The notes under the pieces: model-generated
Database searches by the model: none
What the model was told of the DNA's origin: nothing
The model's input: only the letters and a program-made list of their open reading frames with translations
In this document: positions 1 through 62,969 of the stretch, in pieces
Layout: every line of letters starts with the position of its first letter
Numbering within the stretch: the stretch's first letter is position 1
DNA from: Eledone cirrhosa
Taxonomy: Eukaryota
Direction: 5' to 3'
Length of the DNA stretch: 64,000 nucleotides
Assembly: GCA_964016885.1 (NCBI GenBank)
Contig: OZ024741.1
Location: 143,282,001 to 143,346,000 of the forward strand
Translations under genes and position numbers: made by a program

Positions 1-58
1 TGAGTATCACTTAATGGGAACTAGGAGTGGAGATAAAGGTAGCATGGAAGAAAAACCC

Positions 59-236
59 CATCACCACCACCACCACCACCATCATCATCATCGTCATCAC
101 CTAAATCATCAGCACCTCCCACCACCACCATCATCATCAACAACATCATCTTCATACATCACATTACCACCACTCCATCACCACCACCACCACCACTGCC
201 ACCATCACATATCACCATCACCACCACCACTATCAC
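59..236. repeat. (CAC/CAT)n microsatellite
   Basis: Trinucleotide run; it explains the poly-His ORF 14..283. Confidence 0.9.
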
Positions 237-318
237 CAATCTACAAACACCTTGCTGTCCAAGGTGTTATATTTTATTTTTAATTTTCTCTCTTTCATTC
301 CATCATGTGATGATTCAG

Positions 319-492
319 ATGTTGTTCGCACTGGAAAATACCGGTGCCTTTTTGATCCAACTACCCTTCTATCTGGAAAAGAAGACGCTGCCAACAATTT
401 TGCTCGTGGTTATTATGGGGTTGGTCGAGAAGCTTTAGAAACTGCTGTTGAACGAATAGAAGGACTTGCTGAAGACTGTGATTCTTTACAAG
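319..492 (+). CDS. TUBA: Divergent alpha-tubulin, internal coding exon (about codons 76-134); upstream exons lie outside the window
   Basis: ttcag|AT GTT GTT CGC ACT GGA acceptor at the conserved phase-1 intron position in codon 76. Translates (D)VVRTGKYRCLFDP...GKEDAANNFARG...DCDSLQ(G). Donor CAAG|gtatct at 493. Confidence 0.92.
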
Positions 493-534
493 GTATCTGT
501 TGATAATTCTAACTATATTACTATTGGTTATATT

Positions 535-755
535 TGTGGATTGACAGAGTTGCTGGAGCATTGGACAAAAGCTTAGCAGTATTTGTTCCAGCTCCTTATG
601 TTCTGAGTTCAAATCCTGACAAGGTCAGCCTTTCTTTTCATTCTTTTGGGGGTTGATAAAATAAAGTGGCAGTTAAATATTGGGATTTTAAAAAAATCAA
701 CTTTCCCCTCACCACAAATTGCTGTCCTTGCGCCTGGAGTAGAAATAATTTATTA
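535..755 (+). mobile_element. tRNA-headed SINE, TAA/ATT-tailed family
   Basis: B-box GAGTTCAAATCC, core gccttttc..ggggttgataaaataaagt and an attatt tail; many related copies in the window. Confidence 0.75.
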
Positions 756-764
756 CCCTTGTGG

Positions 765-915
765 ACGCAGCATAGCAAAACATTTTAAAAGTTCCTTTCA
801 TAATAGGAAGGTCCTGAGTTTGATTCTGCTGTATGTCATCTTTTACCATCACCCCAGGTTGACCCAAATCTTGTGAGTAAAATTGGGTAGACAGAAACTG
901 TTTGGAAGCCTGTCT
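765..915 (+). mobile_element. Second SINE family fragment
   Basis: Shares ggttgacc..cttgtgagt..ggtagacagaaactg..gaagcc with a copy at about 47975-48115. Confidence 0.55.
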
Positions 916-1379
916 AATAGATTATATCTGTAATTTAAAGGTCCAGGTTTGGCAAACACTGTGTCATGCTGATTCTGTTCACTACAAGGATACCTTACAA
1001 TGTACATGTTACTATGAAATACTCAGCTATTTCCAATATAATTTAATGAGTTGGTAAATCCAGTTGATTGTTCAGCATTAAAATTAATGGAGATCTATCT
1101 TTTAGATTATGTACATTATGTAATGGAGATTTATCTTTTACATTATGTATTATCTTTTATATAATGATATAATCCTAGAGAATCAATTGGGAGTGTACAG
1201 CAAACCTACCAGGATTGAAAAAAATACCCAGAAATTATTATTCCCATTTTTTGCTTTCATTTATATCTTATTTCAGTTACAGTAATAACAGTGTGTATTT
1301 TATGTATGTGTTTATATGTGTGACATCTGAATGAGTATCCTCAACCTCCAACTAACTTACTCTCCACCTCTTGGTCCCA

Positions 1380-1930
1380 ACCACAGGATGGAGAATACAT
1401 AGCCCTGGAGGACGGCAAGGGAGATGTGCTGGAACAACCATTCCACCTCGCAGGGCTCACACCTACAGGCAGTAAACTCCACTCTGATAGCAGTGAGCTG
1501 AGATGTGGTCCGGGGGCCAAGAACACCAGAAGTCTCCACAGCTACAGGCTCTACTTAAAACCTATCAGAGAGTGGCTGATACTTGGACAAAAACCATCAG
1601 CAAGAGTGGCTTGAGGTGAGATATTGTACTCCATTCCAGTTCATCAAAGCAGCTGATTTTGATTGAACACACTGTGCTATTTGAAAGTAGAAGAGAAGAA
1701 ACCCATGTCATAATGATTGAGAAATATGTCAGTTTGTCCAACAGTCTGAAGGAAGCCAATTTCTGGGTCAAAGTTCTTACTATAGAAGTTTTCAGTGGGT
1801 TTTTAGGAAAATTTGCCTAAACTTCATAAAACAGCTCTCAATCTCTGGGAAGTATAGAATTAAAGCATTAAATCTAATAGTAGAAACACCAGAGAGGAGT
1901 TCCAACTGGATCTGATCGAGGAGGAACAAA
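1380..1930 (+). mobile_element. Degenerate 3' end of an RLE-type non-LTR retrotransposon (HERO/NeSL-like)
   Basis: My translation DIVLHSSSSKQLILIEHTVLFESRREETHVIMIEKY...VKVLTIEVFSGFLG matches the PD..(D/E)xTVPWE...KxxKY...VEVG.RGF restriction-like endonuclease pattern. Stops and frameshifts are present. Confidence 0.7.
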
Positions 1931-2640
1931 AGCAATCCCTCTTCAGTTTAAGTGCATCACAAGTCTATGATATCCTAGTGGTTAAAAAGCATCAGGAGAA
2001 GGGCATCCAGGAGTTATTACCTGGATGTGACCCTGCCTCCTTCAAATATCAGGACCAAGCAGAACTTAATTTTTCGCAATGGAACTAATTTTTTTAATGG
2101 ATTTAATCCCCCCCACATACACACACAATTTCTATAACCCTGTTATCCTTACTCTCACTCACAAACCCATGCACATACATACACAATGCACACACCATTT
2201 ACAACACCATATATACCACCCAAAACACATATACCTCTGCATACACATAAGCCTCAAAATCATACATTTTCTGATGTATGCATGCATATGTGTGCATGCC
2301 TGCACACACCACCAACACACACATCCTAATCTTTCATTTGAAGGTGCATGTGTGCTTGTTTTTCTTGCACACATCTCTGTGATTACGTGGAAGCCAGTGG
2401 TGTGGCTGTGGCGCCATCAGTTTTGAATGGTTCCTAACATTCACTCTGGCCCCATTACCTCCTAACTCTATCCCCCTCCACACATGTAGTGACTTAACAC
2501 TTTGTAGTTCAACCATTTGTAGTTGTACCACCATATCATTGTACTCGAAGCTAAGTGTTTTCTCTTATGGCCATACTAGAAAATGAAATATACAAGGCAA
2601 CAATCATATTGAAGTAAATCACCAGCTTCAGCATTCAGTA

Positions 2641-3710
2641 ACCAGATAGAAAAATGCGTACAGCAAAAAAAGTAATATTGTTGGAATATAAACCTTTAAA
2701 AATACAGGACAAGAAACTAAAATAAAACTTTAAAAGAATAGGACAAGAAACTAAGATAAAACTTTAAAAGAATAGGACAAGAAACTAAGATAAAACTTTA
2801 AAGAATTGGACAAGAAATAAAAAATGTTACAATAATATTAGTGGCAAAATTTTTATTGGTAAAAAATCGAGTTCCACATTCAGAGGTCGTCGTCAGACCG
2901 GGGGATCATTTGATCCTGGTTTGAACACCAATTGGGCCATAACCATACCCCTATTACATCACTCGGCGACACGCCTCATGTGTCATGCATAATGTGAATG
3001 GACCCATGGGCCCATGAGCACAGATCTTGAGCAGCAGCAGATGGTCTTGTCGTCCCGCTCATCCTTAATCTTGACCAACCCGTCCATCTTCTCCTTGCAT
3101 CTTGTCCTTGAGTTCAAGTCCGGCAGTCCAGATGAATGCGTGCCACAGCTTTCTGGTACAGGAAGGGGGAGCAGGAGGACTGGAGGGATGACGGGACAGA
3201 GGGAGGGAGGACCGGTGGTTGAGGGAGGTGCCGTAGTCGGTGGTCAGAGTCGACATCTTGTCCCGGTCGTCTTCTCTATCTTCGTCTGGTGTTGCGGGAC
3301 CAGAAGTGCATTCTTGGAGGAGACCTGCAGCTGCATCGCCCAATTCTTCTTGCAATGGTCATTCTGACGGAGCAGAACTGCTCAGCCAACCAACCCCAAC
3401 CAGAACCAACCGCTCAGGGGCAACGCACAATGAGAGCATGACAATTATTATGCACTAATCAAGAAGATACTGGGGCATAGCACAGGAAACGAATAAAAAA
3501 ATGTTGCCACTAATATTATTGTAAAGTTTTTTATTTCTTGTCCAATTCTTTAAAGTTTTATCTTAGTTTCTTGTCCTATTCTTTTAAAGTTTTATCTTAG
3601 TTTCTTGTCCTATTCTTTTAAAGTTTTATTTTAGTTTCTTGTCCTGTATTTTTAAAGGTTTATATTCCAACAATATTACTTTTTTTGCTGTACGCATTTT
3701 TCTATCTGGT
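2641..3710. mobile_element. Fold-back element: ~217-bp inverted arms (2641-2857 and 3492-3710) with internal ~33-bp tandem repeats around a GC-rich ~630-bp filler
   Basis: accagatagaaaaatgcgtacagc... is the reverse complement of ...gctgtacgcatttttctatctggt. The unit ggacaagaaactaagataaaactttaaaagaata is repeated in each arm. No clear TSD. Confidence 0.85.
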
Positions 3711-3983
3711 CTACTATTTTTTAAGGCAATGCAAGCAGCAACTATCTAATAATTAAATGATCATAGTGAATTACTGACAAGTGATTGACATTTTAAAGTT
3801 CTTTTGAGTATAATTGCAATCTAGTTGAGGCAACTGGCTTAATGATAAAGCTAGTAAATCATGAATGCATTTGAGATGATTAGTGCATAATAGTGAATTA
3901 GTGAAACTTGTGCATTTCAATGGTGTTACAACAATAGATGTAAGTTATATAGTAGTAATACTTTATCATTTTAACTTTTTAGA

Positions 3984-4343
3984 ATGGACAAAAACCCATG
4001 CAAAGAAATGACTTTGACTGCAGTGATTCTCTCCAATTTACTTACAAAGCAAAACGTGGTCAAATACCTTATCATCTCTGATAAAATGCCCATTGAATCA
4101 CTGAAAATTGGATGCATGGAATTCCTCATAAAATGCACCTATGAATCGGAAGCCATCACATATATCAATGGATATAGGGAGTTGTTCACATTGGAAGACC
4201 ATCACTTCATTTGTGACTTCATCAGTTATCTCCACGATTATCTCAGACACCCAATGCCATTGATGAGAGGTGATCCAATGTGTGAGCATGTAACTAATCT
4301 TATAGAAGTTGTTATCGACCACCTGGCTTTTAGTGACATTTGA
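3984..4343 (+). CDS. Orphan 119-aa ORF or exon resembling the BACK domain of SPOP/BTB proteins
   Basis: LTKQNVVKYLIISDKMPIESLKIGCMEFL...INGYRELF..HHFICDF parallels SPOP [29 protein letters not shown]...SGWKSMV..HPHL. Preceded by tttttag (acceptor-like) and an ATG. Confidence 0.55.
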   Translation: MDKNPCKEMTLTAVILSNLLTKQNVVKYLIISDKMPIESLKIGCMEFLIKCTYESEAITYINGYRELFTLEDHHFICDFISYLHDYLRHPMPLMRGDPMCEHVTNLIEVVIDHLAFSDI

Positions 4344-4974
4344 CTGATTTGACTGATAATGATGTATTTTTAAAAAGTATGTGTACATTCTTGTTACTAT
4401 TTTAAGGCAATGCAAGCAACAACTATTTAATAAAATTTAAATTTAAAAATGACCATTGTGCATTACTAGTATGATGACATTTTATTAAGTCACAAAATTA
4501 GTCAGTCAGCCATAGAACAAGGATCAGGTGGCAAAAACATTGGCAAAAATTTGTGTCAATTTAAGATTTCCAACATTGTTCAAATGAATCATATCTGGTT
4601 TGAAGTCAGATTTGTCAAATTTTGACCAATTTTCAATGTTGTGAAGATTGGGCAAGTTCAATTTTTGAATCATTTCTTTCATGCAGTAATTAAACTTTTC
4701 CAAACGTCGTCATTTCTAGATTACCTCCCCTAGCGTCACGCTTACTACTCACTCACTTGAACACAAGATTTATCAGCAAACTTTGATTATAAACTTTTTC
4801 CCGCTGGACCAAATTTCTAGATTTTTAAGCCAAAAGATGCGTAATGATCTACTGTTCATGCTCATATAAGTTTTATCTCAGTTAAATAAAGTAGAGCCGC
4901 GCTGTACTGTCGTAAACAGACGATTGCCAACGAAAACACGACCACAACAATATTACTAAACGGACTACCGTCCG

Positions 4975-5470
4975 TTTAGGATCAGAAGTAGAGAGGTAGG
5001 TGTAAAAGCCAAACTTGCTATCTTCAATTCAGTAGTCATGCCAACCCTTTCCTATGGTCATGAATCTTGAGTAATGACCGAAAAATACGATTGCAAATAC
5101 AAGCAGTCAAAATGGAGTTCCTCCGAAGGGTTTATGGAGTAACATTACTCCATAGAGTGCGTAGTTCAGAGATCAGAGAGTAACTCCAGGTAGAGTTACT
5201 ACTTCTCCAAATTGAGAGATCACAGCTCCAATACTATGAACATGTGGATAGGATGTCATAGGAAAGAATTGCTGGACAGATTTTATGGGCAAAACCAACC
5301 AGCAGGAGACCCAGAGCAAGATGGTTGGATAACAACCATGAGCTGGACTGGTCCCACTTTGGGATCCAGCCAGATCAATTGGAGATGGTTGCTTCTGACA
5401 GGCCCCACTGGGAGGAGTGTTTGAGGACTCTGCCTCCATAACCTTCTCAGGAATAAGTGGATGAAGAAGA
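4975..5470 (+). mobile_element. Degenerate RTE-clade LINE 3' fragment
   Basis: Reads KAKLAIFNSVVMPTLSYGHES*...MEFLRRVYGVTLLHRVRS...RPRARWLD with stops. Confidence 0.75.
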
Positions 5471-5890
5471 ACAATCATATTCGCTACCACCACCTTTTCT
5501 ATACAACCCTTTATGATTGCTTCTACGTATGTGTGTATATACATATACACCTCCCTATATTGGTCACTTCACGCGTGTGCATTCACTCACACCTCTCACA
5601 GCAGCCAGTCCCGTAACAGTCAGTCCAATGCCCATCCTTCAAACCTTTACATAAACAAATGAACAAACCTACACACACAACACATGCACATGCACACACA
5701 TGTCCATTCAAAATATATAATGATTACCCCCATCCCCTCCCTTTCTAAACCTCTCTCATTCCTAAGAAACCCACTGACCAGCATTTCTCCAAAATGGCTG
5801 ACTGAAAACACAAGTTTTTCCTTTAAAAAAGTTTTTCCCTGTTCCTTCCTCTTCTTACTCTTTCTATTTCATCTTTTATTTCTCACTCTA

Positions 5891-5927
5891 TCTTCTAATG
5901 AAGGACTAGTGTCTGAAACGTTAAGAC
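5891..5927 (+). ncRNA. Degenerate minimal hammerhead ribozyme (core CUAAUGA, G5 mutated)
   Basis: tctt-ctaatga-aggactagtgtct-gaaa-cg-tt-aaga; palindromic AACGTT stem III. Related copies at 43825-43862 (minus) and about 56825 (internally deleted). Confidence 0.6.
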
Positions 5928-6046
5928 TCTTTTCCTATTATATCAAGTGTTAAACTAATATTTTTCTTCATTGTTTTGTGTTGTTTGCTTTGTTATTTTT
6001 ATTTTATTTTTGCATACATATATATAAATATATATATATATATATA

Positions 6047-6081
<35 letters not shown>

Positions 6082-6126
6082 TAAAATATAAATATTAATA
6101 AAATAGATGTTCTTTTTATCAATTAC

Positions 6127-6179
6127 ATTTTATTATACATATTTCGGATGTACAACAGTACGTCCTCATCAGACAAAAT
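6127..6179 (-). ncRNA. Type I hammerhead ribozyme (left arm of hairpin A)
   Basis: Reverse complement of 6273-6325. Confidence 0.85.
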
Positions 6180-6272
6180 ATAATGATATATGACATACCT
6201 TGAGATATTAAATGGTTAAGATTTAATCAAGGTAAACCATTTAACATCTCAGGGTATGTCATATATCATTAT

Positions 6273-6325
6273 ATTTTGTCTGATGAGGACGTACTGTTGT
6301 ACATCCGAAATATGTATAATAAAAT
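6273..6325 (+). ncRNA. Type I hammerhead ribozyme (right arm of hairpin A)
   Basis: Stem I ATTTTGT/ATAAAAT, core CTGATGA (6280-6286), stem II GGACGTAC-tgtt-GTACATCC, GAAA (6307-6310), short stem III T-atgt-A. Predicted cleavage after AUA at 6318. Confidence 0.87.
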
Positions 6326-6506
6326 GTAATTGATAAAAAGAACATCTATTTTATTAATATTTTATTAATATTTATATTTTAATATTAATAACTCTGGAAA
6401 ATTATTTTCCATAGAGTGCTTCCAATCTACTGTAAAACTCATTCTTTGATGTACTCATTGAATATTGTTTAACTCTTTAATATATATAAATATATATATA
6501 TATATT

Positions 6507-6845
6507 AGAATTGGTGCTCTGAAATAGCGATATACATGAATGTATATATAGTATATTTGGCAATATACTATATGCTTAATTAAAAGCATTTTGAAGACCT
6601 TGCGCTATTGTTTTAAAGTAGTGACTATGTCACTTACTTCTTTTTTCAACAAACAAAGGGAGATAAGCTGACAGATCTGTTTCATACTGTTGGTAATCAT
6701 CAGAGCTTAGCACTCACTTTGTCTGTTGAAAATTATAAATGTTGGATTCATATAGAATTTCAGTAATAATCAAGAACTGATTATACAGAGCGATTGCCGT
6801 TCCAGCAAAAATTGAAAATTCAAATTGGTGCTCTGAAATAGCGAT
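6507..6845 (-). mobile_element. Retrozyme/Penelope-pLTR-like ~314-nt monomer with terminal redundancy; HHR at 6664-6709
   Basis: aattggtgctctgaaatagcgat occurs at both 6509 and 6823. The segment is an inverted copy of 7167-7500 and is flanked by TA/CTAT microsatellites. Confidence 0.8.
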
Positions 6846-6865
6846 CTATCTATCTATCTATCTAT

Positions 6866-7105
6866 CTAAGGCGGGTAAAATTCCCGAGATCCATGGACGA
6901 GTTCTCTCCAGCGGTCTCTGTCCCTCATTATCGCTGCCATATCCTGCATCTCCAACAGACCAGTGTCTGTCCTTAGGGCATCAACATATGTTAACCTTGG
7001 TCTTCCTCTTCTAGTGTGTCCATGTAGGGGCTCCCAAAGGAGCACTGAGTGCAATGTCAACTCTGGATGTCGGTGAGCATGTCCAGCCAACCTCAGTCTC
7101 CTCTG
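6866..7105 (-). mobile_element. RTE LINE 3' fragment
   Basis: QRRLRLAGHAHRHPE...RRGRPRLTYVDAL is the typical RTE ORF C-terminus. Confidence 0.8.
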
Positions 7106-7166
7106 TATACATGAATGTATATATAGTATATTTGGCAATATACTGTATGCTTAATTAAAAGCATTC

Positions 7167-7500
7167 ATATATACATTCATGTATACATCGCTATTTCAGA
7201 GCACCAATTCTAATTTTCAATTTTTGCTGGACCAGCAATCGCTCTGTATAATCAGTTCCCGATTATTACTGGAATTCTATAAGAATCCAACATTTATAAT
7301 TTTCAACAGACAAAGCGAGTGCTAAGCTCTGATGATTACCAACAGTATGAAACAGATCTGTCAGCTTATCTCCCTTTGTTTGTTGAAAAAAGAAGTAAGT
7401 GACATAGTCACTACTTTAAAACAATAGCGCAAAGTCTTCAAAATGCTTTTAATTAAGCATATAGTATATTGCCAAATATACTATATATATACATTCATAT
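7167..7500 (+). mobile_element. Second retrozyme/pLTR-like monomer with a short 5' inverted piece (7105-7165)
   Basis: atatatacattcat occurs at 7167 and 7485; near-identical to the reverse complement of 6507-6845. Confidence 0.8.
7323..7368 (+). ncRNA. Type I hammerhead ribozyme, family B
   Basis: Stem I TAAGCT/AGCTTA, CTGATGA (7329-7335), stem II T-TAC-caaca-GTA-T, GAAA, palindromic stem III ACAGATCTGT, GTC cleavage triplet (7360-7362). Confidence 0.87.
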
Positions 7501-7545
7501 ATATATATATATATATGTATATTACTCCAAGTACATGGCAACAAA

Positions 7546-7720
7546 ACATATATTTCCATCGGTACTCAGAGTTTCATGATGGTATACAATTAATCTTGCA
7601 TCCACCATCAATTTTTAGCCTTTTCACAAAGGCTGGAGATTGATGGGGGATGTAAGATTAATCTGTAACAATTAATTTGATACCATCATGAAACTCTGAT
7701 AACCAATGGAAACATGTATT
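7546..7720. repeat. Old imperfect hairpin made of two outward-facing decayed HHRs (family C)
   Basis: Centre agcctt-ttcac-aaaggct. Arm consensus CTG(A/G)AGA-T-TGATGG...CCATCA-T-GAAA-CTCTGAG-TA. Confidence 0.6.
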
Positions 7721-8084
7721 TTAAGTCATATAAAGTACTCCTATGTTTACATATAGAGGGCTAATTCTTTAAAAAAGTGGAACTATTCAATCAAATCTCA
7801 AAGGAGAATAGAGATAGACTTATAGGTTGTGATTGCCAGTCACGGAACAAGGCAGTTGCTCAATGCTTATATCATTCAAAACAAGTGTTAAGAGAAGGTT
7901 AGGTTAAAGCTTGGAAAAAGTTAGTGATGCATTTAGGAAATATGCAGAGCATGTATATTCAAAAGTATTTGAAGAAAATCAACTTACTTTCATTAAAAAC
8001 TGTTTAATCACTTACAATTGTTTCTGGCAGTTTGTGAAATATATATATTTCTGGAATTTTGTGAAATCATCATCATGACCATCA

Positions 8085-8366
8085 TTGATTAACGTCTACC
8101 TTCCATGCTAGCATGGGTTAGATGGGTTTGTCCCATTTAGTGGCAAGTTGTGTTGGGTGACCATGTCTCGTTCATATAGGAGTGTTTCTGGCTAGTTTTC
8201 TACTGTTGGATGCCCTACCTAATGCCAACTACATTTACAGTGTGTGCTGGTGCTTTTTGCCGTGTCTTTTACACGACCACTTTACAGTGTGGGCTGGATG
8301 TTTTGTGGTACCATCATAATGTACATATATATATTTATGTACATGCATATATCATGATAATGATAT

Positions 8367-8405
<39 letters not shown>

Positions 8406-8428
8406 TGCATATATCATGATAATGATAT

Positions 8429-8465
<37 letters not shown>

Positions 8466-8488
8466 TGCATATATCATGATAATGATAT

Positions 8489-8548
<60 letters not shown>

Positions 8549-8936
8549 TTATTCATATACATATACCATATATATATATAATATACATACACATATCATA
8601 CATATACAAACACACTTCATATGTACACACACATATATATATATCATCAACCACATCATATAACATCCATCTTCATGGGTAGGATGGATTGACCCTTAGG
8701 GAAAAAACAGGCCAGAAGACCATGTTTAGCTCACCTGGGAGAGATTTTTGCTTGGTTTCTATAGCTTGGTTTCTATACTCCCAACCACATTTACAGTTTG
8801 TGCTGGGTGCTTTTTGTCGTGTCACCTACATGACCACATTGCAGTGTGGACTGGGCACTTTTTGTTGTGACACCTTCATGACCACTTCACAGTATGGACT
8901 GGGCAATGTTTGTCGTGACACCTACATGACATGAAG

Positions 8937-8968
<32 letters not shown>

Positions 8969-9372
8969 TGTTGTAATTTGCTTGAAGCATTGGGGAATAT
9001 GAAAATTGGTTATGTCTTGGAAACCGCTACAATGCAGGTGCCATTGTAAATATTAATGCAACAAAATCAGGGGAGGCATGAGAGTGGTAAGGTTGAGTAG
9101 AGAAGAGGATTAAATAACAAAAATCAGGGATAATGTTAACTTGGAAATATTTATTAGTTCCAATATATTTCAGCTATACCATCCATTATCAAAGGATGCA
9201 ATGGGAACCTTGGATAATATTGGAGAAAACCCTTCTATGCCTCTGTGAGGCTTGTGTACATACATATTTATATGAGTGAGACACGGTCATCTGACCAGCC
9301 TTGGGACAACTCCCGACTAACCCATGCTAGCGTGGAAAATGGACGTTAAACGAAGATGATGATGATGATGAT
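8085..9372. mobile_element. Cluster of RTE 3' UTR fragments (8085-8320 minus, 8655-8935 minus, 9275-9372 plus) and TA-rich tandem repeats
   Basis: Tail aacccatgctagcatggaa..ggacgttaaa(gat)n and the ~47-bp repeat cccagcccacactgtaaagtggtcgtgtaggtgtcacgacaaaaagca are shared with the RTE at 14718-17349. Confidence 0.75.
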
Positions 9373-9861
9373 ATGAATGTATGTATTGCATTCTGCCTAT
9401 GGTAATGACACTCTTATGTAATTTACTGTCTATGATAACAGCATTTGTGGTCAATAAATGAGGCAAAGGTGTACAATTCCTTACTGGAAGTAATGGGAAT
9501 AGCCCATTATCGCTAACAGTTTTGATAATGTACAGTGCTGAGGTGAACTCTTTGTGTATTCACTATAGTTTAATGAGCAAAGAAAAAGTGCTTCAATATC
9601 ATTGCTTGATAGATTAAACATAACAGCCCCCTCCCCCCCCCCCATTAAACCCCATTATTTTAAAATTGTAGGTCATCTTAGAGAATGTTTAAAATAATGT
9701 GATGATCAAGAGTAGAATGTTTTTGATCATAGATCTATTGGATCAAGTCTGACCTGGTGTTCAACAACAATAGCAACAATCTACCATTTCTCTATTGTCA
9801 GTATTTCTATGCAGAACATCATTTCTATTATTAGTGACAATATACATTGCTGTCATTTCAG

Positions 9862-10817
9862 GTTTTGTTCTTTTTCACAGCTTAGGTGGAGGCACTGGTT
9901 CTGGTTTCACAGCAATCCTTGCTCAAGCTCTCAGTCAGCTCTTTCCTAAGAAATCAAAGATGAATTTTATTGTTTATCCATCACCTCATTTATCAACATG
10001 CATAGTCGAACCATACAACTCGTTGCTCGGCACACACTGCATAATGGACGATTCTGATTGCAGTTTCCTTCTTGATAATGAAGCTATTTACAAGATCTGT
10101 CAAAAAAAACTCAATATTATACGTCCAATGTATAAAAATCTGAACCAAATCATCTCCCAGGTACTCAGCTCTGTCACAAACCCATTACGTTTTGATGGGG
10201 CCCTACCAGTAAACCTTACTACGTTTCTGACTAATCTGGTACCTTATCCACGAATTCACTTTCCTCTTATCACTTATGCACCACTGATGACAGAGATGAC
10301 TATCTTACGCACAGTAGTAAGTACCCAACACTTAACCAATCAGTGCTTCGTGGCTCAAAATCAAATGGTGAACTGTTCACCCCAACAAGGCAAATACATG
10401 GCCTGTTGCCTCCTATATAGAGGAGATATTTGTCCAAGTAAAATCAACTCTGCATTACAGAATCTCAAAAAGTCAAACAAGATACAGTTTGTCGACTGGT
10501 GTCCAACTGGATTCAAAGTTGGTATCAACAATCAACCACCTAACATAGTTCCTGGCAGCAATATAGGTGGTTCTATTCGTGCTGCTTGTATGATTTGTAA
10601 TACAACAGCAATTAATGAAGCCTGGGTACGTCTCAATTACAAATTTGATTTGATGTTTAAAAAGAAGGCTTTTGTTCATTGGTATACTACTGAAGGCATG
10701 TCAATAGATGAATTCCATGAGACTCGAGAAAACATGGCTGCACTTGAGCAAGACTACAGAGAAGCTGGTGTTGATACAATAATAGAGGAAGACGAGGAAA
10801 TACAGGAAGAATATTGA
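9862..10817 (+). CDS. TUBA: Divergent alpha-tubulin, terminal coding exon
   Basis: tttcag|GT TTT GTT completes the phase-1 Gly codon from 492. Contains [61 protein letters not shown] and AFVHWY, then an acidic tail ending EEY-stop. Confidence 0.96.
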
Positions 10818-11078
10818 ACATGTTTAAATAGAATACCTTTTAGACTCACTGTATGTGAGAACAGAAACAATTTCAACTTTTTTAGTTGACTTTCAGAGAG
10901 AGATGAAGCTTTCGAAATTTACTGTCTCCACCATTTACAAGTTTCTCTCCCTGTCTCTCTTTCAAATCAGTGTAATATTTTCCATTTTCCACAAATGTTT
11001 GAAAGTGTTTGCGAGTTTCTTCATTGCAGTAAATCTGATGTAAGTATATATTGTCACACAAAAATCGCCTAAAAAACA

Positions 11079-11088
11079 AATAAATAAA
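11079..11088 (+). terminator. Candidate polyadenylation signal of the tubulin gene
   Basis: Overlapping AATAAA hexamers about 260 nt after the stop codon. Confidence 0.5.
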
Positions 11089-11159
11089 TCTTACAATTTA
11101 TCACAGCATTTGGATGATTTGAAATTTGAAATGTTAGAATTTAAACAAAGAATCACTAT

Positions 11160-11405
11160 AAATGATAATAGCTATTTAAAAAATCAGGTAAAATACCTTT
11201 AGGGACTGGAAAAAGTGGCCAGCAGCCACTAAAGAAAATTGAATTCCTGCCAAGTGCATTACCATTACATCAAATGGCATCTAACAATTGAGATAAGGAC
11301 CGGCATTCAGGAGCTATGGAGTTCAATTTTTTGTAATGACTGCTAGCCACTGTTTCTTGTCCCTAAAGATATTTTATCCAATTTTCTAAGACTATTATTA
11401 TTTAT
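11160..11405. repeat. Degenerate inverted repeat (~90-bp arms)
   Basis: ctttagggac..agtggccagcagcc..aaaattgaattcc versus ggagttcaatttt..gactgctagccact..gtccctaaag. Confidence 0.6.
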
Positions 11406-11731
11406 AGCATTTCTGTGTTTGAATACCAATATTTGAAAAATAAATAAATTGAAGTGAAATCTAAGCAAGAATATAAATAAAAACAATTGATAATATATTC
11501 TGTTAATTTTAAATGTCAGACATTACAATTTCCTTGACAGTTGTATCTTACTGCTTTTTGTATCACAGAGGGATTATATGACAACTGCTGAGATGTTGAT
11601 GAGGATGATATTGATTAGCACCAGTATCAGCTCTGATCCAGCAGATCCATCTTTCTCTCTCTATACACACACACACACACATATATTTATATACATACAT
11701 AGATACACACACACACCACACACACACATAC

Positions 11732-12089: not shown

Positions 12090-12230
12090 ATTTATTAAAA
12101 TAACATTAAAATAACAGATTAATCTGTTATTTTAATAAATTTTTGCTCTACGGTTCTTATATATTTGATATATATTTATCCTTATCGAGCCCTCTTTGGA
12201 TTTAGTCTTCAAATTTATTATTATTACTAT
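12090..12230 (+). mobile_element. Short Penelope-pLTR-like tail with 5' inverted piece
   Basis: Same sequence as 43320-43460 (minus). Both begin with the palindrome atttattaaaataacagatt/aatctgttattttaataaat and sit in (TA)n. Confidence 0.55.
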
Positions 12231-12242
12231 ATATATATATAT

Positions 12243-12864
12243 GGATTAGAAAGAAGCGAAGCCTGCATGCTCCGATGGATGTGTAATAGTAATATACGTG
12301 AACGGCAAAGCATAAATGAATTGAGAGAGAGACTGAGCATAAGAGGAATGAAATTCTGTGTGCAGGAGAGGCGGTTGCGTTGGTATGGACATGTGATGCG
12401 TATGAAGGATGACAGCTGCATAAAAAGGTGCAGAGTACTAGAAGTCAATGGAAACCGCGGAGTGAGAAGACCCATGAAGTCCTGGGATGAGGTGATAAAA
12501 GCCGACCTTACCCAATTACACCTCTCAAAGGCGATGACACATAACTGTGACCTCTGGCGTCATGCAGTAATACAGAAGACCCGACCCTCCCACGGGTACA
12601 AGCCGAAGCTGAAGCATATAGACAATATGCCCCCACACCCTTCCACTGCAAAGTGGACGTGTAGGCGACAAGGAAAAAAGCACCCAGCACTCACTGTAAA
12701 TGAGGTTGGTGTTAAAAAGGCATCCAGCTGTAGAAATCAAGCCAGTATCAGCTCCCGTATGAGCAAGGCATGGTCAGCCGACCGGACACTGCTCACAACA
12801 GGACAAACCGTCTAACCCATGGTAGCGTGGAATAACGGACGTAAAACTGTGATGATGATGATGA

Positions 12865-12867
<3 letters not shown>
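12243..12867 (+). mobile_element. 5'-truncated RTE LINE
   Basis: LERSEACMLRWMC...[12 protein letters not shown]...RPMKSW followed by 3' UTR and (gat)n tail. Confidence 0.88.
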
Positions 12868-12909
<42 letters not shown>

Positions 12910-12912
<3 letters not shown>

Positions 12913-14680
12913 CGTTTCTGAATTTGTTTAGCAAGATTCTTTATCTGAAATCGTGTGTTGAAACCGATATTGTTATACTTTGGGAGGGTCATGTTGCCAA
13001 TAAGAAACACACGCACCAGTTGCTTTCACTTCAATTTATTATAATAAATTTATAATAAATTTATAAATTTCTGGTTGGTTGGTTGGTTCCACAACCAGAT
13101 AGTTGTTTATATATTGTCATAGTTCTTTCGTCACACACTCTGTGACCTCTTCAGTGACTGGGGATTCCTTTCTTTGTTTCTGTGCCTCTCCTTTGTTCTG
13201 TCCTACGCCATTTTGTTTCTGCGTGTGTGTTGTGTGCTCAGTCTGCGCATGCGCCACATCCGGGTGTCTGTGTGTGTTTATGTTCATTTATTTATTTGTT
13301 TATTTATGTGTTACTGGTTGGTTGTTTGTTCTATGTGTGTGTGTGTTTTTATTTTGTCCTTAATTGTAAGTTGTGATGTTGCTGTTCCACTCATATTTTC
13401 TATTTAATTTTGGTTGTAATTCTTTTATGTTTATTGCCTCTGTGATTTGTCTAAACATTGCGTCTTTTCTGTGTGTAGATTCTATTTTTATTTCTATGTT
13501 CTCTAATTTACCCTTGTGTTCTATTTTAGCATGTTGGTAGAGTACAGATGATTCTTTACTATCTTGAAGGTCTCGCCAGTGTTCATTTATCCATTCCCCT
13601 ACACTACGAGCTGTCTCACCTATGTACACTATATTTTTGTCTCTACATTGTCCTTCAGTACATCTTATGCTATACACTACATTTCTAGTTTTACAGTTAA
13701 TATGGGGGCTTATTTTACAGGTTATACATTTCTTATCTATACATGAGGGTCTTTGAAAAGGGTATGTCTTGCTAATAAGTGTTTTTACGGAGGTACCTGG
13801 TCTTTCTACTATCTTAATATTGAGTTTATGTTTATCTAGGGCCCTTCTAAATTTGTAAGCTAATTCACCTCTAGGGGTTGTATCGATGAACATTACACTC
13901 TGGTATTTATTGCTATCGTACCATGAGTTTATTCTATTAGCCTTGTTCCTAGTTCTTTCTATTCTATTCCAAAATTTGCTCCTATACAAGGGGCAGGTCC
14001 TATTTATGTCACTATTTACCATTTTTTTCCCATTTGGTTCTGGCTCCTCTATACACTCTGATTTTATCTCTCTGATTGTAGCCAGAGAACTGCATATGGT
14101 GGATGAAGTGTTGTATGTGTCTCTCTAGTTCTTCGGGGTTGTACATGCGGGACACGTTTCTCATCACCCGTACCAAATCCGCAATCAGTATGTTGATTTT
14201 GGTATGGTCCGAAACGGCCGAGTTTCGGTGGATCAGATGTTTGGAAGTCATGGGTTTGGCATAATGGGAATGGAGGATTTGTTTTTTGTTATTTATGGTA
14301 TCTAACCAGAGCTCTGTGTCTAGTACAGGTAATCGATGGTTGGGGTGTTTACTTGGGTAGTCTATAGTAACTCTAATGCTCTGGTGGATGGAGTTAGCTA
14401 TTTGCTGGATGCTTTCCATTGTGTTTTTCTCTAGTTCCTGACTGTTCTCTAGTGGGGGTGTCTTAACTACGATGTTTATATCATCAACGTAGCGGGAGTA
14501 CATTATCAGGGTTAAGGGGTCTTCTAATTGTTCTTTAAGTTTAAGTTTAAGTCTACTGTCCCACCATACCATGAATAAGTTAGCTATGTCGCCTGCAATG
14601 CTAACACCAATGGCTGCTCCTTCTTCTTGGGCATATGTTTTTCCATTAAATTTGAACATATGTTCCTTAAGGGATAAAAC
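12910..14680 (-). mobile_element. 5'-truncated Penelope-like element (RT C-terminus, GIY-YIG endonuclease, pLTR with HHR)
   Basis: ORF 14012-14659 has G.AIG.SIAGDIANLFM, RYVDD and LPVLD. Frameshifted ORF 13360-14022 has CKTRNVVYSIRC...YIGET.R...EH and EAINIKELQPKLN. Confidence 0.93.
13116..13158 (-). ncRNA. Hammerhead ribozyme in the Penelope pLTR (family D)
   Basis: Minus strand gtca-CTGAAGA-gGTCACagagtgtGTGAC-GAAA-gaac-TA-tgac. Confidence 0.85.
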
Positions 14681-14717
14681 TAACCCTTAAGGGATAAAAC
14701 TAACCCTTAAGGAACAT

Positions 14718-17349
14718 ATGGAATTCTGTGACGCTAAAAACCTAACTATCTGTAATACAAACTTCAAAAAACGAGACAATCACTTGATCACCTATAGATC
14801 AGGGGAACATGCCAGCCAGATAGATTATATCTTTACTAGAAGACGTGACAGAGTGTCTGTTGTAAACACTAAGTCCCTCCCCCATGAAGAATGCACTTTC
14901 CAACATAGCCAAGTAGTTAGTGACTTTATAGTCAGGACTAGATGTACTCGATGACAGAGGAGGACTACCTTGAGGAGAAGAATATAGAAGTTGAAGGTTG
15001 AAGGACCCCACAGCCAGTGACAAATTTAAAAGCTTATTACTTGATGCTTTTGACATTAAGGAAGAGCAATTAGAGACGTACAATATAGAGGAACAGTGGG
15101 AATTTTTAAAAGTTAACCTGCTGAAGGCAATGGATGAAATCTGTGGCTGGAGCAGACCTATAGGCAGGAGGAGAGTAACTTAGTGGTGGAATAGTAAGGT
15201 GGAAGAATCAATCAAGGCCAAAAAGCAGGCCTGGAAAGTATGGCCAGGGGAGAAGCTAGGAGACAAGTGTACCTTGCAAGAAGGGAAGCAGAGGATAGAA
15301 AGTTCAAGTATGTTCTTCAATGCAGGGACCAAAAACTTGAGGTGTTCAGGATTGCAAGACAATGTGTGAAGGAAAACCATGATATTGTCGGGGAGAAGTG
15401 TGACCATAATGATGATGGTGTACTTGCCCTCACTGATACTGATAAGAAGGTAGCTTGGAAGTGTCACTACGAGAGACTACTAAATGAGGAGAATAAATGG
15501 GAAAAAGATAGTCTGCCCCAAATCGATCCAATAGAGGGACCAGCGGTGCAAGTTAGTGGTTGTATAATAAGTAAGGCAATCAAAGATATGAAGACAAGCA
15601 AGGTGGCTGGGCCTTCGGAGATAGTTGCTGAGATGTTGAAAGCATCTGGAATTATGGGACATACTAAGGTCACCTGGATAGTAAACCAAATAATACAGAA
15701 TGGGGTCATACTAAAGGACTGGTGTAGCAGCATCATCGTTAATTGCTACAAGGGTAAAGGGGATGCTCTAGATAGGGGAAACTATAGAGGTATTAAGTTA
15801 GTTGACCAGGTCATGAAGGTCACAGAAAGAGTTATAGCACAACTAATCAGAGATCGAATTGATCTAGATGAAATGCAGTTTGGGTTTGTGTCAGGTAAAA
15901 GTACCACAGATGCTCTTTTCCTTGTACGACAACTACAGAAGAAGTACCTAGCTAAAAGTAAAGCCCTCTACTTAACTTTTATTGACTTGGAGAAAGCCTT
16001 TGACAGAGTCCCACACTGCATTATCTGGTGGGCCCTTAGAAAGCTAGGAGTAGATGAATGGCTTGTGAGAGCTATACAAGCCATGTATAAAGATACAGTC
16101 AGTAACAATGAATATAGTGAAAAATTTAGCATAAAAGTCAGTGTTCATCAAGGCTCTGTCCTTAACCCCCTTCTGTTTGTTATTGCCCTTCAGATTATAA
16201 CAGAGGAGTTTAAGACTGGCTGCCCATGGGAACTCCTATATGCAGATGATCTAACGCTCATAGCTGAATCTATGGCTGAACTAGAGAAGAAATTCCAAAC
16301 ATGGAAGCATGGCCTAGAATCAAAAGGCCTTAAAGTTAACTTGTCTAAGACTAAAGTTCTAGTATGTAGAAAGGAAAATAGGGCACAGGTGCCCTCTCGG
16401 AAATGGCCATGCTCAGTATGTAGGAAAGGAGTAGGCAGAAATTCCATTCTATGTCCCAAATGCAAACTATGGGTACATAAAAGATGTAGTAGGATCACAG
16501 GTAAACTATCTAAGAACGTAGATTTTATATGTGGCCGATGCTTAGGTGCAATAAGTAGCAAGTGCCCACAAGATACTAGCTTCTTCTATTGCCCAGATGG
16601 TTCTATAGAAATAGTGGACACTTTCCGTTACCTGGGTGATAAAATCAGCAGTGGTGGAGGGTGTTCTGAAAGAAGAGTAGCCAGAGTTAGAACGGGATGG
16701 AAAAAGTTCAGAGAGCTTATACCGCTGTTGGCCACAAAAGGTTTCTCTCTGAAAATGAAAAGCAGATTGTATGATGCTTGTATACGAACAGCAATGTTAC
16801 ATGGCAGTGAGAGATGGGCTTGTGTGCAGAGGACCAGCGCAGACTGGACAGGAACGAAGCATGCATGCTCCGTTGGATGTGTAATACACGAACGGCAAAA
16901 CATAAAAGAACTAAGTGAGAAATTAGGAATAAGAGGGATCAGATGCTGTTTACTCAAGAGAAGATTACATTGGTACGGTCACGTGATGCGCATGAAAGAT
17001 GACAACTGTATAAAAAAGTACCTTGCACCTCTCTAAAACAATATCACTGGATCGAGATCTTTGGCACCACGCAGTATTACAGAGGACCCACCTTCCCTAC
17101 GTACAAACAAGTGTCACGACAAGGTGTCACGACAAAAAAAAACTCCATGCTGTAATGTGGTCGTGTAGGTAACACAGTAAAAAGTTCCCAGTCCACACTG
17201 TAAATGTGGTTGGTGTTAGGAAGGGCATCCAGCTATAGAAAACCTGCCAGATAGTCCTATACGAGCGAGACACGGTCACCCGACTAATCTTGTTTCAAGT
17301 GGGACAATTTCCGTCTAACCCATGCTAGCGTGGAAGAGGGACGTTAAAC
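14718..17349 (+). mobile_element. RTE-clade LINE (APE C-terminus plus RT with PHD-like Zn-finger insertion), disrupted
   Basis: SQIDYI (APE), NYRGIKL, QFGF, DLEKAFD, QGSVLNP, YADD and FRYLG motifs; C4HC3 cluster; RTE 3' tail; stops and frameshifts. Confidence 0.95.
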
Positions 17350-17863
17350 ATATATATATATATACATATCCTCAACTACATTAACAAATGTGTCTTTCCC
17401 TTTCTGTTTTAAAGATGGTAAAAGTTAAAGGTTGAGGGGTGTTTGGTTGCTGTTTCTAGCAGGTCAAGTTTCCATTATTGGTAAAAGTAGATTTGGTTGG
17501 TGTGCAAGACTAGTTAGCAATTTGGATTGATATTTTTTTTATTACACATTCATCAGAGCATGTTTACCCCATGCACGCACGCACACACACACGCACATAC
17601 ATTTGAAATGTTGGAATCCAAATTCAGAAATCACTAGAGAAAACTCTCTCTTGAATTCCAGCTCAGAATTCAAAAGACATAGAGTTTGATTCTCTGTAGT
17701 GGTTGTTGGCCATTATTTTCTGTTAGTAAATGTATTTTATCCAATTTACTAAGGTTATTATTTATAGTGATTTCTGCATTTGGATTCCAGCATATAAAAT
17801 TTCAAATCACTCAAGCAAATACCTTGATAAATCATTCTATCTAACTATCTATCTTTCCAACCC

Positions 17864-18985
17864 CTTGTATTTGTCCCCTTCTTTTGTGCCCCTGTGGCTA
17901 ATAAAGAAACATATCTATCTTTCCAACCGGGGTGGGCACCGTTTGTGAGACAGGCTTTCCCACAGCTTGTCTCGCTGACGGAGCTGCAGTCCTGGGTGAA
18001 GAAAAGACCGAAAACGATGGGCGCCTGGCACATTGAATGCGCTCAGGCGCTCACAGTCCTCTGGCAAGCGGGCGCAGCAATCAGTGGAGACTCCACTTCG
18101 ACATTCTATAGAGGGATTGTACGTTACAAAGGTGACGACGTGCTCGGAGAGACTCTGGGCGTCGAAGACGATGAGCTCACCAGTCTGTTTGGTAGGACTT
18201 TCCGCCCGGGACCTATGGACAACTTCCAAAGGTTCCTGGCCTGGCAGTGCTACTGAGGAGCTCTACCTGTTCGTGACAAGATCTACAGGCACGGACGCCC
18301 CGACAGGGATCCTTCCAAGAGGACGTGTCCAAGATGCGCGCAGCACATTGAAACAGTCCTGCACGCAATTGTACACTGCCCGGGCGTAACCGACCTGTGG
18401 AACTATGCAGAACAACTGCTGTCGCGTATGGGACAAATCCAGTTGACTGCAGAGTCTATAGTAAGGATCAAACCGCCAGCCTCTTTCAAAAACGAAAGAG
18501 AGGCGGTTTTCCTCTGTACGGTGGCTATGGTGAAAGAAGTTATATGGTGGACGAGGTTGAGAGGACTGAGGACAGATGCCTTTCTCTCCGGACAACAATT
18601 GATTCCCTTCTTTAAGTATCACTTTAGAAGGAGAATCAGGGTGGAGAGAGAGGCACTGCACCCCAGTAAATTTACTGCAAGGTGGGTGAATGAAGCGAAA
18701 ATGGCCCGAGTGATTGGGCCTTCTCTGTTTATAAGCCTGTAGGTTGAGAAAGAGAGCAAAAGGAAGAAAGGAGCACTTGCACAACACGCTCCTGGAGTTG
18801 AGGGTTGTTCTATCGACGGGATATTAAACAACCCATTTGTGGTGCCTTCCCCTATTGGGGATTTCGATTGTTGTAATTGTTTGTTTTTATATTTTTTACA
18901 CGACTGTATATAAAATCCCCGGCATGTCTTTGTATTGTCCCCTTTTCTTGTGTGCCCTTGTGGTTAATAAAGAAATATATCTATC
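17864..18985 (+). mobile_element. Two tandem 5'-truncated copies of the Tx1/L1-like element (17864-17918 and about 17924-18985)
   Basis: Near-identical to about 23515-24585; each ends aataaagaaa(c/t)atatctatc. Confidence 0.88.
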
Positions 18986-21900
18986 ATCATGAAGTTGTGT
19001 GCCAGTCGCGCTGGTAAGTTTTTTTCTTTTTACTTATAAAAAACAAAAATTATTGTTTTAAAAAATATACCACTGTATAGATTGACCCTCCGACTAAATT
19101 GTCAATGGATGGGTCATTGAAATTTTCGCCCCTTGGGGGCGTAATTTAATTTTCATAAAAATTTATAATAAATTGTTTTAACTATGAATGATAAAATTGA
19201 AGCGCTTCCCGCCATAAGTGGAAATGGGAGCGTTGAAATGAATGTCACTATAGCAACAGGTAGTGACCGAGATAAATCACACCAAAACAAAAGTATGGAA
19301 ACACATACGGCACAAAAAATATTGAACAAGAAAAAAACACAACTTCACAAATGAACTCCACAACCACAAATCAAGCAATTGAGAACAACAAAAACAACAA
19401 CAACAACAGCAACCATAAAAAATCTTTTGCCACAATAAGCAAAGGAACTTTTACAAATATTGTTATTTCCAATGCGAAGGAAATGATCAATGAAGGAAAA
19501 AAATATATTACCTTCGAGGAAAAAGGGGGATTTAAAATAATCTCTCCGCCACAACTCAAAGCCGACACTATGCGAAGGACTGTGATTTTTCGCACGATTT
19601 TGAACAAACAAAAAAAAACGACTTTCCTTACTCAAGGCGAAATTGAAATCGTCTTGAAATACACTACATACAAAGGGCTAAACTGTATGGAAGCATTTCG
19701 GTGCTCTTCAAAAGTGAGGCCCTTGCGAAAAAATACTCAGTGACCCCGGTCACCTCTGCCACACACATCTTTTTCCCTACATGGGAAAAAGTACACAAAG
19801 AATAAACATCACCAATATACCACCCAACATTAACATCTGGTGGATTCTGGCAGGGTTCTTGGAGGAAGATGAAGACACAATACTGTCGATTCAAAAATCC
19901 ACAAGAAACACCTGGGACGGCACAAGCTTGGAAATTTTGGTCCAATTGAAACCAGACAGAATTTCCAAGATACCAGAAAGGGTGCCAGTAGACAATACCA
20001 ATTACATCCACATTTTGGCAGATGTAAGAAGGCCACATTGTTTTAAATGCGCGAGCACATCGCATTTAAAGGCCTCCTGTCCCCTCTTACAAACAAACAC
20101 CACCACCCCCCAAAAAGTACTTTTACCAACATCAACTCCAAAACCACAACAACAACAACACATAAAACAAGCAAACACGCAAAAAACAAACAACTGTTCA
20201 ACCACAAACAACAGAAAAAACACAAACAATTCCCCTGAAAAACACAGTCCCACTCCATCCAACACTACCACAATCACACACACAAACACACCATCACGAC
20301 ACAACATACCCCTCGCACACGCTCCTGATGACGATTCATCACCAGACGAGGCTACTTCTCCATCCCCAAGTGAAGATGAAGGAGAGCCTCGTAAATCAAA
20401 AAAATCAAAAAAAGAGACACCACAAAGCCACAAAAACAACAATCACCAACACAAACACACAACCACCAACACAAATAACAACACAAACACCACCACAATC
20501 AACCCCCTGCCCCTACCAGCAAAACAAACACCAACACCACCCCAAACACAAATGCCCACCATAAAAAGAAAACTACAAAATGAACAACAAACCAAAACAA
20601 CACAACAAAAAAACAAACAACAATACACATACATTAACACAAACAACAAAAACCTAATGGAGGTCATCTCCCAAGACCCCAAAGTAGAAATTGAGGGGGA
20701 AACTTTTGTAAAAGCAAACTCTCAACCACACCTAAAACTGATAAGAGTTTCGATAGAGACCTATCAGACATTGAAAGAAAAGTTTTCACAGGTCGTTGGC
20801 AACCACTGCCAAAAACCAATAAACCGTGTCCTGTTGAAATGTTTCCCCACCCCACTCAACACCCCCACCAGAACTGAAATGGAGATTAAACAACCCGATC
20901 TCCAGGAAACGAAAAGGTAAGTGCACCTTTTCGTCCTTTTTGCCAACCCTTCTCCACCAACCTGGCTGACTTACGAGTTGGAAGCGTGAATGCCCTGGAA
21001 ACAGGGCCAACTTTTAAACGACCTTAGGTCACATGGTATAGATGTAATAGCCATCACCGAGTCCAGGAACCACAACAGGCAGCAACTAACCCCTATCTTC
21101 AATGACTTTGAGATCTACGCATCTCTCTGTCAGCCGGGAGGTGGAGGGGGAGTCCAAGTGTACTTGCTGTACTTCGAGATCCAGGTTTCGGAAAAACCTG
21201 GATCTCGAAGTACAGCAAGTACACTTGGACCCGGAGGGTAGACTGATAGTCCTAGACGTGAACAGTATTGGAGGTGGAGCCTTCAGACTGGTGGCCGTTT
21301 ATGCCCCGACCGGGCAATCACAATCGTGGCCAGACTTCTTTAAGCGTCTGGAGTCTTTTCTGGGAATGTCTCGCTCCTTGCTTTTAGTGGGGGACTGGAA
21401 TGGTATCCTAGATGCACGATGGGACTATGTGGGAGCATGTCCCAGTAGAGCGGGGTGCAACAGCCTCAAAAATCTAATTGGCCAATTCCAACTGGCCGAT
21501 AGATATCGACTAGATTTCCCGACTGCACCACAGTGGACGTGGGCAAACCGCAGCGGGACATCGAGATCATATCTAGATAGGTTTTTCATTAGAGAAAAGG
21601 ACAAGAAGAGGTTAAGCTGTTCACAAATGCACATGGTTGCCTATTCAGGTCACAAACTAGTCGTCTGTATAGTCAACCGTGATAGAATACATAGACAAGG
21701 ACCCGGATACTGGAAGCTGAACGTGTCGTTGCCGGCACGAAAAGCCTACAGTGAACGGATAAGTAGATTAGTTAAGCAAGAGTTGACGGGAGCCATCGTC
21801 AACAATAGATGGCGGTACTCTCTCAAGAGAGCAATTAGAGTAGAATCGATAGGGTTTAGCAGAGAATTAGCTTTAGAGAAAAACAAATCAGAAACAGAAC

Positions 21901-62680: not shown

Positions 62681-62682
62681 TA

Positions 62683-62751
<69 letters not shown>

Positions 62752-62752
62752 G

Positions 62753-62789
<37 letters not shown>

Positions 62790-62818
62790 GTATATATATA
62801 TATGTGTGTATATATATG

Positions 62819-62911
<93 letters not shown>

Positions 62912-62916
62912 GTGCG

Positions 62917-62968
<52 letters not shown>
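62681..62968. repeat. (TA)n/(TATG) microsatellite
   Basis: Direct inspection; similar tracts at 8370-8545, 45370-45680 and 57958-58136. Confidence 0.95.

Positions 62969-62969
<1 letters not shown>

Follow-up and report, generated by a model that had tools for sequence, protein, structure and literature searches.

Coleoid cephalopods code for a strongly divergent α-tubulin that lacks the glutamate at position 254; its version in Eledone cirrhosa lies in the window analyzed here, a stretch of 64,000 nt from contig OZ024741.1 (143,282,001-143,346,000, forward strand). We are highly confident that this is a gene under constraint, as the initial annotation held in proposing a natural isotype, not a dead gene. 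We further predict that it is very probably GAP-dead, a prediction that draws on the absence of E254 from all the orthologues together with the published roles of E254, D251 and N249. The interpretation toward which we lean, with modest confidence, is that of a coleoid-wide α-tubulin whose dimers stack into protofilaments without a trigger for GTP hydrolysis, yielding long-lived, motor-poor microtubules in a specialized cell such as the spermatid.

Gene structure and genomic setting

Exons 2, 3 and 4, when spliced, give an open frame of 450 amino acids with a C-terminal EEY, and all their junctions are GT-AG and of phase 1. The features are as follows (positions are those of the window unless another prefix is given):

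L031:1513-1518, about 8.5 kb upstream of the window: putative two-codon exon 1 (candidate)
G000:C2:143278394-143278616, 3.4-3.6 kb upstream of the window: coding exon 2, residues 2-76
1..318, + strand: 3' part of the intron at codon 76, phase 1
319..492, + strand: coding exon 3, residues 76-134, T3 loop DAANN intact
493..9861, + strand: intron inside codon G134, 9.4 kb, GT-AG, phase 1
9862..10817, + strand: coding exon 4, the last, residues 134-451 and stop
9885..9905, + strand: tubulin signature, sequence GGGTGSG
10188..10241, + strand: T7 loop and helix H8, with P249 at 10206-10208, N251 at 10212-10214, T254 at 10221-10223 and L256 at 10227-10229
10275..10325, + strand: rewritten M-loop, 4 of 17 residues canonical; H283R common to all four lineages
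10434..10469, + strand: helix H10, K326S and D327K in all four lineages, N329 retained
10494..10520, + strand: residues 345-353, the H10-S9/S9 interdimer contacts D345, T349 and K352, fully canonical
10665-10667, + strand: R402K, upstream of residues 414-417
10701..10712, + strand: residues 414-417, H11-H12 outer surface, E414S and E415I, motor-activation glutamates gone
10806..10814, + strand: C-terminal EEY, terminal Tyr present in all orthologues

The last exon (317 residues) aligns with residues 135-451 of human TUBA1B without gaps, so the residue numbering of the two is one to one. Direct translation of 10188-10235 returned the letters of the initial annotation, and the substitutions that it read relative to canonical α-tubulin, namely N249P, D251N, E254T (ACG at 10221-10223) and Q256L, are exact. 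The change from a Glu codon to ACG requires at least two base changes, and the best PDB matches of the last exon are engineered E254A and E254N chains. The uninterrupted frame, GGGTGSG, splice phases and EEY tail described earlier were likewise borne out. The placing of the divergence in the T7 loop was too narrow: the substitutions there are real, and the whole protein is divergent, with 58% identity to the canonical α consensus.

Broken upstream exons had been named as a sign of a pseudogene; exons 2 and 3 proved to be open and joined in frame, and exon 1 is a candidate only. The product of exon 2 has G in place of R2 and a Cys/His-rich luminal loop without K40; it starts with GEIV, and the Octopus models start two residues earlier, with MTGEIV, the RefSeq models of two Octopus species containing a two-residue first exon. 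The pattern ATG-NNN-GTRAG has seven matches in the 76 kb upstream. Five of these lie in one repeated context and are likely retroelement copies, and another is part of a microsatellite; the match closest to exon 2, at a distance of 4.9 kb, has a donor of full consensus. In a stretch of 560 bases that leads up to and includes the candidate exon (L031:961-1520), four TGACATCA-type motifs occur, on either strand.

In runs X1 and X3 the read contigs extend over about 9355-11647, and in X2 over 9633-11647, each with 0 substituted letters, the three runs representing one sample that is possibly the source data of the assembly itself. The sole substituted letter listed in the two exons of the window, at 453 in one X3 contig (n=1), is synonymous (Arg121). 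Short inverted and nested repeats with very high read depth occupy 6100-6400 and 6420-7520 inside the G134 intron, and downstream of the gene lie what we take from their ORF translations to be several degenerate LINE-like reverse-transcriptase copies (12123-24416 and 60765-63661).

The gene appears to be single-copy: searching the genome with exon 4 and with exon 2 returned one copy of the divergent type each. E254 is present in 25 of the 25 other α loci examined; the genome gave 90 matches, fragments among them. Against loci of its own genome the protein shows 57-59% identity to α- and 33-37% to β-tubulins, and it is placed with the α-tubulins in a tree with a β outgroup; by its sequence it is a member of the α family outside the canonical dynamic class. 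The intron in G134 is missing from most of the canonical α paralogues.

The genome holds further tubulins of some interest. About 8 Mb away, a big tandem cluster combines canonical α-tubulin genes with many broken copies (G000:C2:133.3-134.9 Mb; L002-L025 in part), and an intron-rich α-tubulin at G000:C19:24.976-25.008 Mb (L039-L041) has a longer H1-S2 loop and retains D251 and E254. Near 15.61 Mb of G000:C5 (L026:1105-2391, + strand) lies an intronless, open and strongly divergent β-tubulin, about 70% identical to other β-tubulins, with alterations in T3 (G100S), the signature, T5 and the guanine-stacking residues, and with no acidic C-terminal tail. It is possible that this is a partner of the divergent α-tubulin, or else a retrogene.

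A coleoid clade without Glu254

In protein searches, the Octopus orthologues (P0005, P0122 and P0123; O. bimaculoides, O. vulgaris, O. sinensis and two further records) are 77-78% identical to the Eledone protein and that of Argonauta hians (P0008) 68%, the canonical tubulins forming a plateau below these at roughly 60%. Scanning position 254 over all aligned α-tubulin matches, where it is Glu in 210 of 215, exposed a further, Sepia-type cluster that includes a Sepia pharaonis TUBA (P0237) and its relative P0243, with 60-63% identity over residues 135-440. The Eledone, Octopus, Argonauta and Sepia sequences form one clade with an SH-aLRT of 100 in two trees, both of them quick trees, the second with about 20 other divergent α-like sequences added. 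They have 12 identical derived residues in common. Octopus-type and Sepia-type ORFs also turn non-homologous at G134, the residue of the Eledone intron, which indicates an intron position common to both types of gene. Taken together, the single clade, the derived residues and the break at G134 place the origin of this α-tubulin before the split of octopods and decapods. That split dates to about 270 million years ago. P0335 has 7 of the 12 diagnostic residues, yet falls outside the clade in the second tree. Neither the profile search nor a search with the Sepia region returned a further cephalopod or molluscan member among the best 120 matches listed, both searches being dominated by canonical and fused tubulins, so that copies in Nautilus or other molluscs may have been missed.

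That orthologues might retain E254 had been raised as grounds for rejecting the annotated isotype; all four lineages lack it. The initial annotation had also taken T254 and N251 as the state to be conserved, which did not hold: position 254 carries T in Eledone and Argonauta, A in Octopus and S in Sepia; at 251 the octopods have N and Sepia has D; and position 249 reads P, Q, Q and R in Eledone, Octopus, Argonauta and Sepia. As far as these sequences go, what the lineages have in common is that Glu254 is missing, not that Thr has taken its place, and D251N is confined to the octopods. An ancestral Ala254 would be a parsimonious intermediate.

Sites that vary among the orthologues comprise 43 of 161 canonically invariant positions against 49 of 58 canonically variable ones, and under random neutral mutation the frame stays free of stops in only 1 of 500 simulations at 23% amino-acid divergence and in 27 of 500 at 11.5%. 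In the predicted fold of the Octopus orthologue P0005 (mean pLDDT 90.5, pTM 0.91; 94-row alignment), helices and strands follow one another in a tubulin-like order, a pLDDT as high as this being expected for any close homologue and the fold being that of the Octopus protein. Constraint pattern, neutral simulation and open orthologue frames bear out the initial annotation in its preference for a real gene over a dead one.

Retained and altered surfaces

The N-site GTP residues are retained at 21 of 22 positions and the intradimer face at 30 of 38, given the residue lists and region boundaries that we assume for α-tubulin. On the interdimer docking face, 23 of 43 residues are invariant across all four lineages, including 257-263, N329 and 345-352 (with D345 and K352). 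The acidic tail with its terminal Tyr is present. Against this background, N249, E254, H283, K326, D327, E414 and E415 are changed in all four lineages, and R2 and D251 are lost in the octopods, the Sepia record being without an N-terminus. In the Eledone protein, T254, N251, P249 and G2 replace the canonical GAP set, and no acidic residue nearby substitutes for E254. Across the lineages, helix H10 retains 4-7 of 12 canonical residues and the M-loop 3-7 of 17; the H1-S2 loop has lost K40 and is Cys/His-rich in octopods. The MREC/MREI start of autoregulation is absent (GEIV in exon 2, MTGEIV in Octopus). The motor-activation residues read K402, S414 and I415 in Eledone, and neither 414 nor 415 is acidic in any of the four lineages.

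The altered positions are ones to which functions have been assigned. αE254, D251 and N249 contact the lytic water and the γ-phosphate (a 2026 cryo-EM preprint, bioRxiv 10.64898/2026.06.19.733065); E254 acts as the base, with an αR2-βE69 bridge proposed as needed for hydrolysis (PMC10319017); and E254A, E254N and E254Q microtubules are stable and GTP-filled, the mutants carrying mutation-specific artefacts (PMC11893814). Yeast αE415 and E416, which belong to the EEGE motif and correspond to vertebrate 414 and 415 with the numbering shifted by one, are described as critical for activating the ATPases of kinesin and dynein (PMC4298687), evidence that comes from yeast tubulin and cytoplasmic dynein. 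With these activators of kinesin and cytoplasmic dynein lost in all four lineages, the cilium or flagellar axoneme suggested earlier is disfavored as the site of action, provided that the effect extends, as we infer, to axonemal dynein. The alternative earlier suggestion of a pure capping role is made less attractive by the 23 invariant residues of the docking face. What endures of the initial interpretation is thus a real, constrained gene that is predicted to be GAP-dead; the conserved T254/N251 does not, and the axoneme and the purely capping role are less favored.

Under the reading that we lean toward, the dimer would still bind GTP at the N-site and stack head to tail, and we regard its entry into a lattice as likely, the conservation of the interfaces being suggestive of pairing with β-tubulin and polymerization. 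Without αE254 the underlying β-tubulin would stay GTP-bound, and catastrophe would be suppressed. Lateral contacts would be altered, both the M-loop and its partner loops having changed; kinesin and dynein activation would probably be poor, and escape from MREC autoregulation may be expected. Such microtubules would suit a static structural array better than an axoneme that beats. For the tissue we can offer a guess, the male germ line, at even chances; the candidate site would be the manchette of octopus spermatids, whose perinuclear microtubules have been described (PMC11753710). The association of a KIFC1-like kinesin-14 with the octopus manchette (PMC3004946) does not agree well with a manchette that is entirely motor-silent. 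No RNA record was listed for the last exon, which speaks neither for nor against expression. An O. sinensis gonad GO supplementary table contains no α-tubulin gene rows, six O. maya testis supplements contain no match to the gene, and the passages of PMC9048481 that were covered have nothing on it. Besides the KIFC1-like motor, points against this reading are that the heavily changed H10 and M-loop could weaken rather than stabilize the lattice and that Sepia retains D251.

Of 244 conserved sites, 33 are changed in all four lineages, E254 among them; it also belongs to the 8 of 33 conserved acidic positions that have turned non-acidic. The loss of E254 may therefore be a passenger event in a broader remodeling of the surface. 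The protein would then serve a static or short-lived structure in which hydrolysis and motor binding are irrelevant, stabilization never having been selected. The overall divergence of about 40% and the joint loss of those eight acidic sites fit this, as do the lineage-specific states at 249 (PQQR) and 254 (TATS) and the non-acidic residue at 254 in 20 of 77 very divergent α-like representatives. We nonetheless consider it unlikely: position 254 is always small (A/S/T) in all lineages, the flanking 257-263 and 345-352 are invariant, and near-canonical E254G proteins of Cryptotermes and Agrilus, with R2, the M-loop and E414/E415 intact, suggest that targeted loss can occur.

A terminal or non-lattice subunit (a dimer that acts at minus ends, in nucleation or as a cap, or else a holder of β-tubulin), whose T7/H8 face never meets a β E-site, would account for the location of R2, N249, D251, E254, K326 and D327, all on the minus-end face, and for the better preservation of the N-site (21 of 22) and intradimer contacts (30 of 38) than of H10, the M-loop and the H1-S2 loop. 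It is rendered rather improbable by the invariance, on that same face, of 257-263, N329 and 345-352 across octopods and cuttlefish, and by the retained terminal Tyr. Detyrosination acts on the polymer.

The tail-less, intronless L026 β-tubulin, altered in T3 (G100S), T5 and the guanine-stacking residues, invites the thought of a private polymer built with a dedicated divergent β-tubulin, in which hydrolysis is absent or proceeds by another route; with L026 on another contig and the α-tubulin devoid of a nearby acidic substitute for E254, we give this very little credence. A decaying pseudogene or assembly error, which could appeal to the merely candidate exon 1, a long branch and a non-optimal last donor site, is the least probable of all and largely refuted by the open frames in every named orthologue (5 species), the neutral simulation and constraint pattern, the read contigs that match the assembly and the two Octopus RefSeq models with a two-residue first exon; the substitution is no sequencing error, and the gene is very likely no pseudogene.

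Loss of E254 elsewhere and its meaning

Among 130 α-like cluster representatives with an aligned position 254, scored by automated pairwise alignments of which some are uncertain, Glu is found in 47 of 47 with at least 80% identity to canonical α-tubulin, whereas those below 65% have Glu in 45 of 77, Asp in 12 and a non-acidic residue in 20. Loss of E254 is, on this count, common in fast-evolving tubulins; proteins that have lost all three glutamates, E254, E414 and E415, are less frequent (3 of 82, from sequences among which β-tubulins may still be present). Near-canonical α-tubulins with Gly254 occur in Cryptotermes secundus and Agrilus planipennis (P0116, P0226-P0228; the Cryptotermes protein and two Agrilus paralogues, with more Agrilus in the cluster), and by their sequences they illustrate a targeted loss of the catalytic residue more cleanly than the cephalopod gene does. 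Position 254 is D in Halichondria panicea (P0245), T in Bolinopsis microptera (P0394) and A in Paragonimus westermani (P0328). The likeness of all five to the cephalopod protein lies in a catalytic glutamate lost or weakened; these animal α-tubulins fall outside the coleoid clade in the trees, and the insect ones are otherwise near-canonical.

With canonical α-tubulin (human TUBA1B; L002-L022) the cephalopod protein shares fold, length, GGGTGSG, the N-site, 257-263, 345-352 and the C-terminal Tyr; it differs in being only 58% identical, in lacking R2, N249, D251, E254, K40, H283, E414, E415 and MREC, and in its extra G134 intron. The engineered human αE254A/N/Q proteins (PDB 7sj9, 7sja; PMC11893814) include the very residue found in Octopus, Ala254, as a hydrolysis-dead state. 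They are single mutants on a canonical background, unlike the cephalopod protein, in which about 40% of residues differ, the lateral and motor surfaces included.

The nearest natural counterpart is α3 of Toxoplasma and other coccidians, an isotype without D251/E254 that is conserved in related species and predicted to be GAP-dead and non-dynamic (PMC10056924). Its N-terminal MREI motif also contains one inserted residue, the cephalopod N-terminus being similar, but α3 carries T and H/Q at 251/254 and a very long tail, whereas the cephalopod proteins have A/S/T254 and a tail of the normal kind and have lost the motor glutamates. Lineage-conserved loss of E254 of this type is seen in four of four cephalopod lineages; the two cases are analogous, GAP-dead by prediction in both, and presumably of independent origin, α3 lying outside the tree sampling. 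A natural GAP-dead α isotype hence has a printed precedent, itself predicted only, to which the coleoid clade would add a further one, with motor activation predicted to be lost as well. The literature searched, which left out most subscription papers, contained no description of the coleoid clade, and six orthologue ids led to no paper by accession. Databases label the orthologues "tubulin alpha(-4) chain", ordinary names that hide the E254 change.

A bolder proposal, which we hold only tentatively and judge to be less likely than the reading favored above, is that coleoids have kept, since before octopods parted from squid and cuttlefish, a dedicated α-tubulin for motor-silent microtubules in which GTP stays bound permanently, perhaps together with a tail-less β-tubulin of its own. 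This natural, evolution-tuned counterpart of the E254A mutant would be one of several independent "frozen GTP-cap" lattices of animals (insect E254G, flatworm, ctenophore). Should the loss of E254 be a mere passenger, the value of the gene would drop to that of a good example of a specialized isotype. In the laboratory, the GTP cap is mimicked mainly with E254 mutants. A natural, long-conserved α-tubulin in which A/S/T254 is combined with lateral and motor surfaces that co-evolved would show how non-hydrolyzing lattices can be used by a cell, would supply evolution-tested sequences for work on the cap structure, and would open to experiment the question of whether animals adjust dynamic instability through the dose of a GAP-dead isotype.
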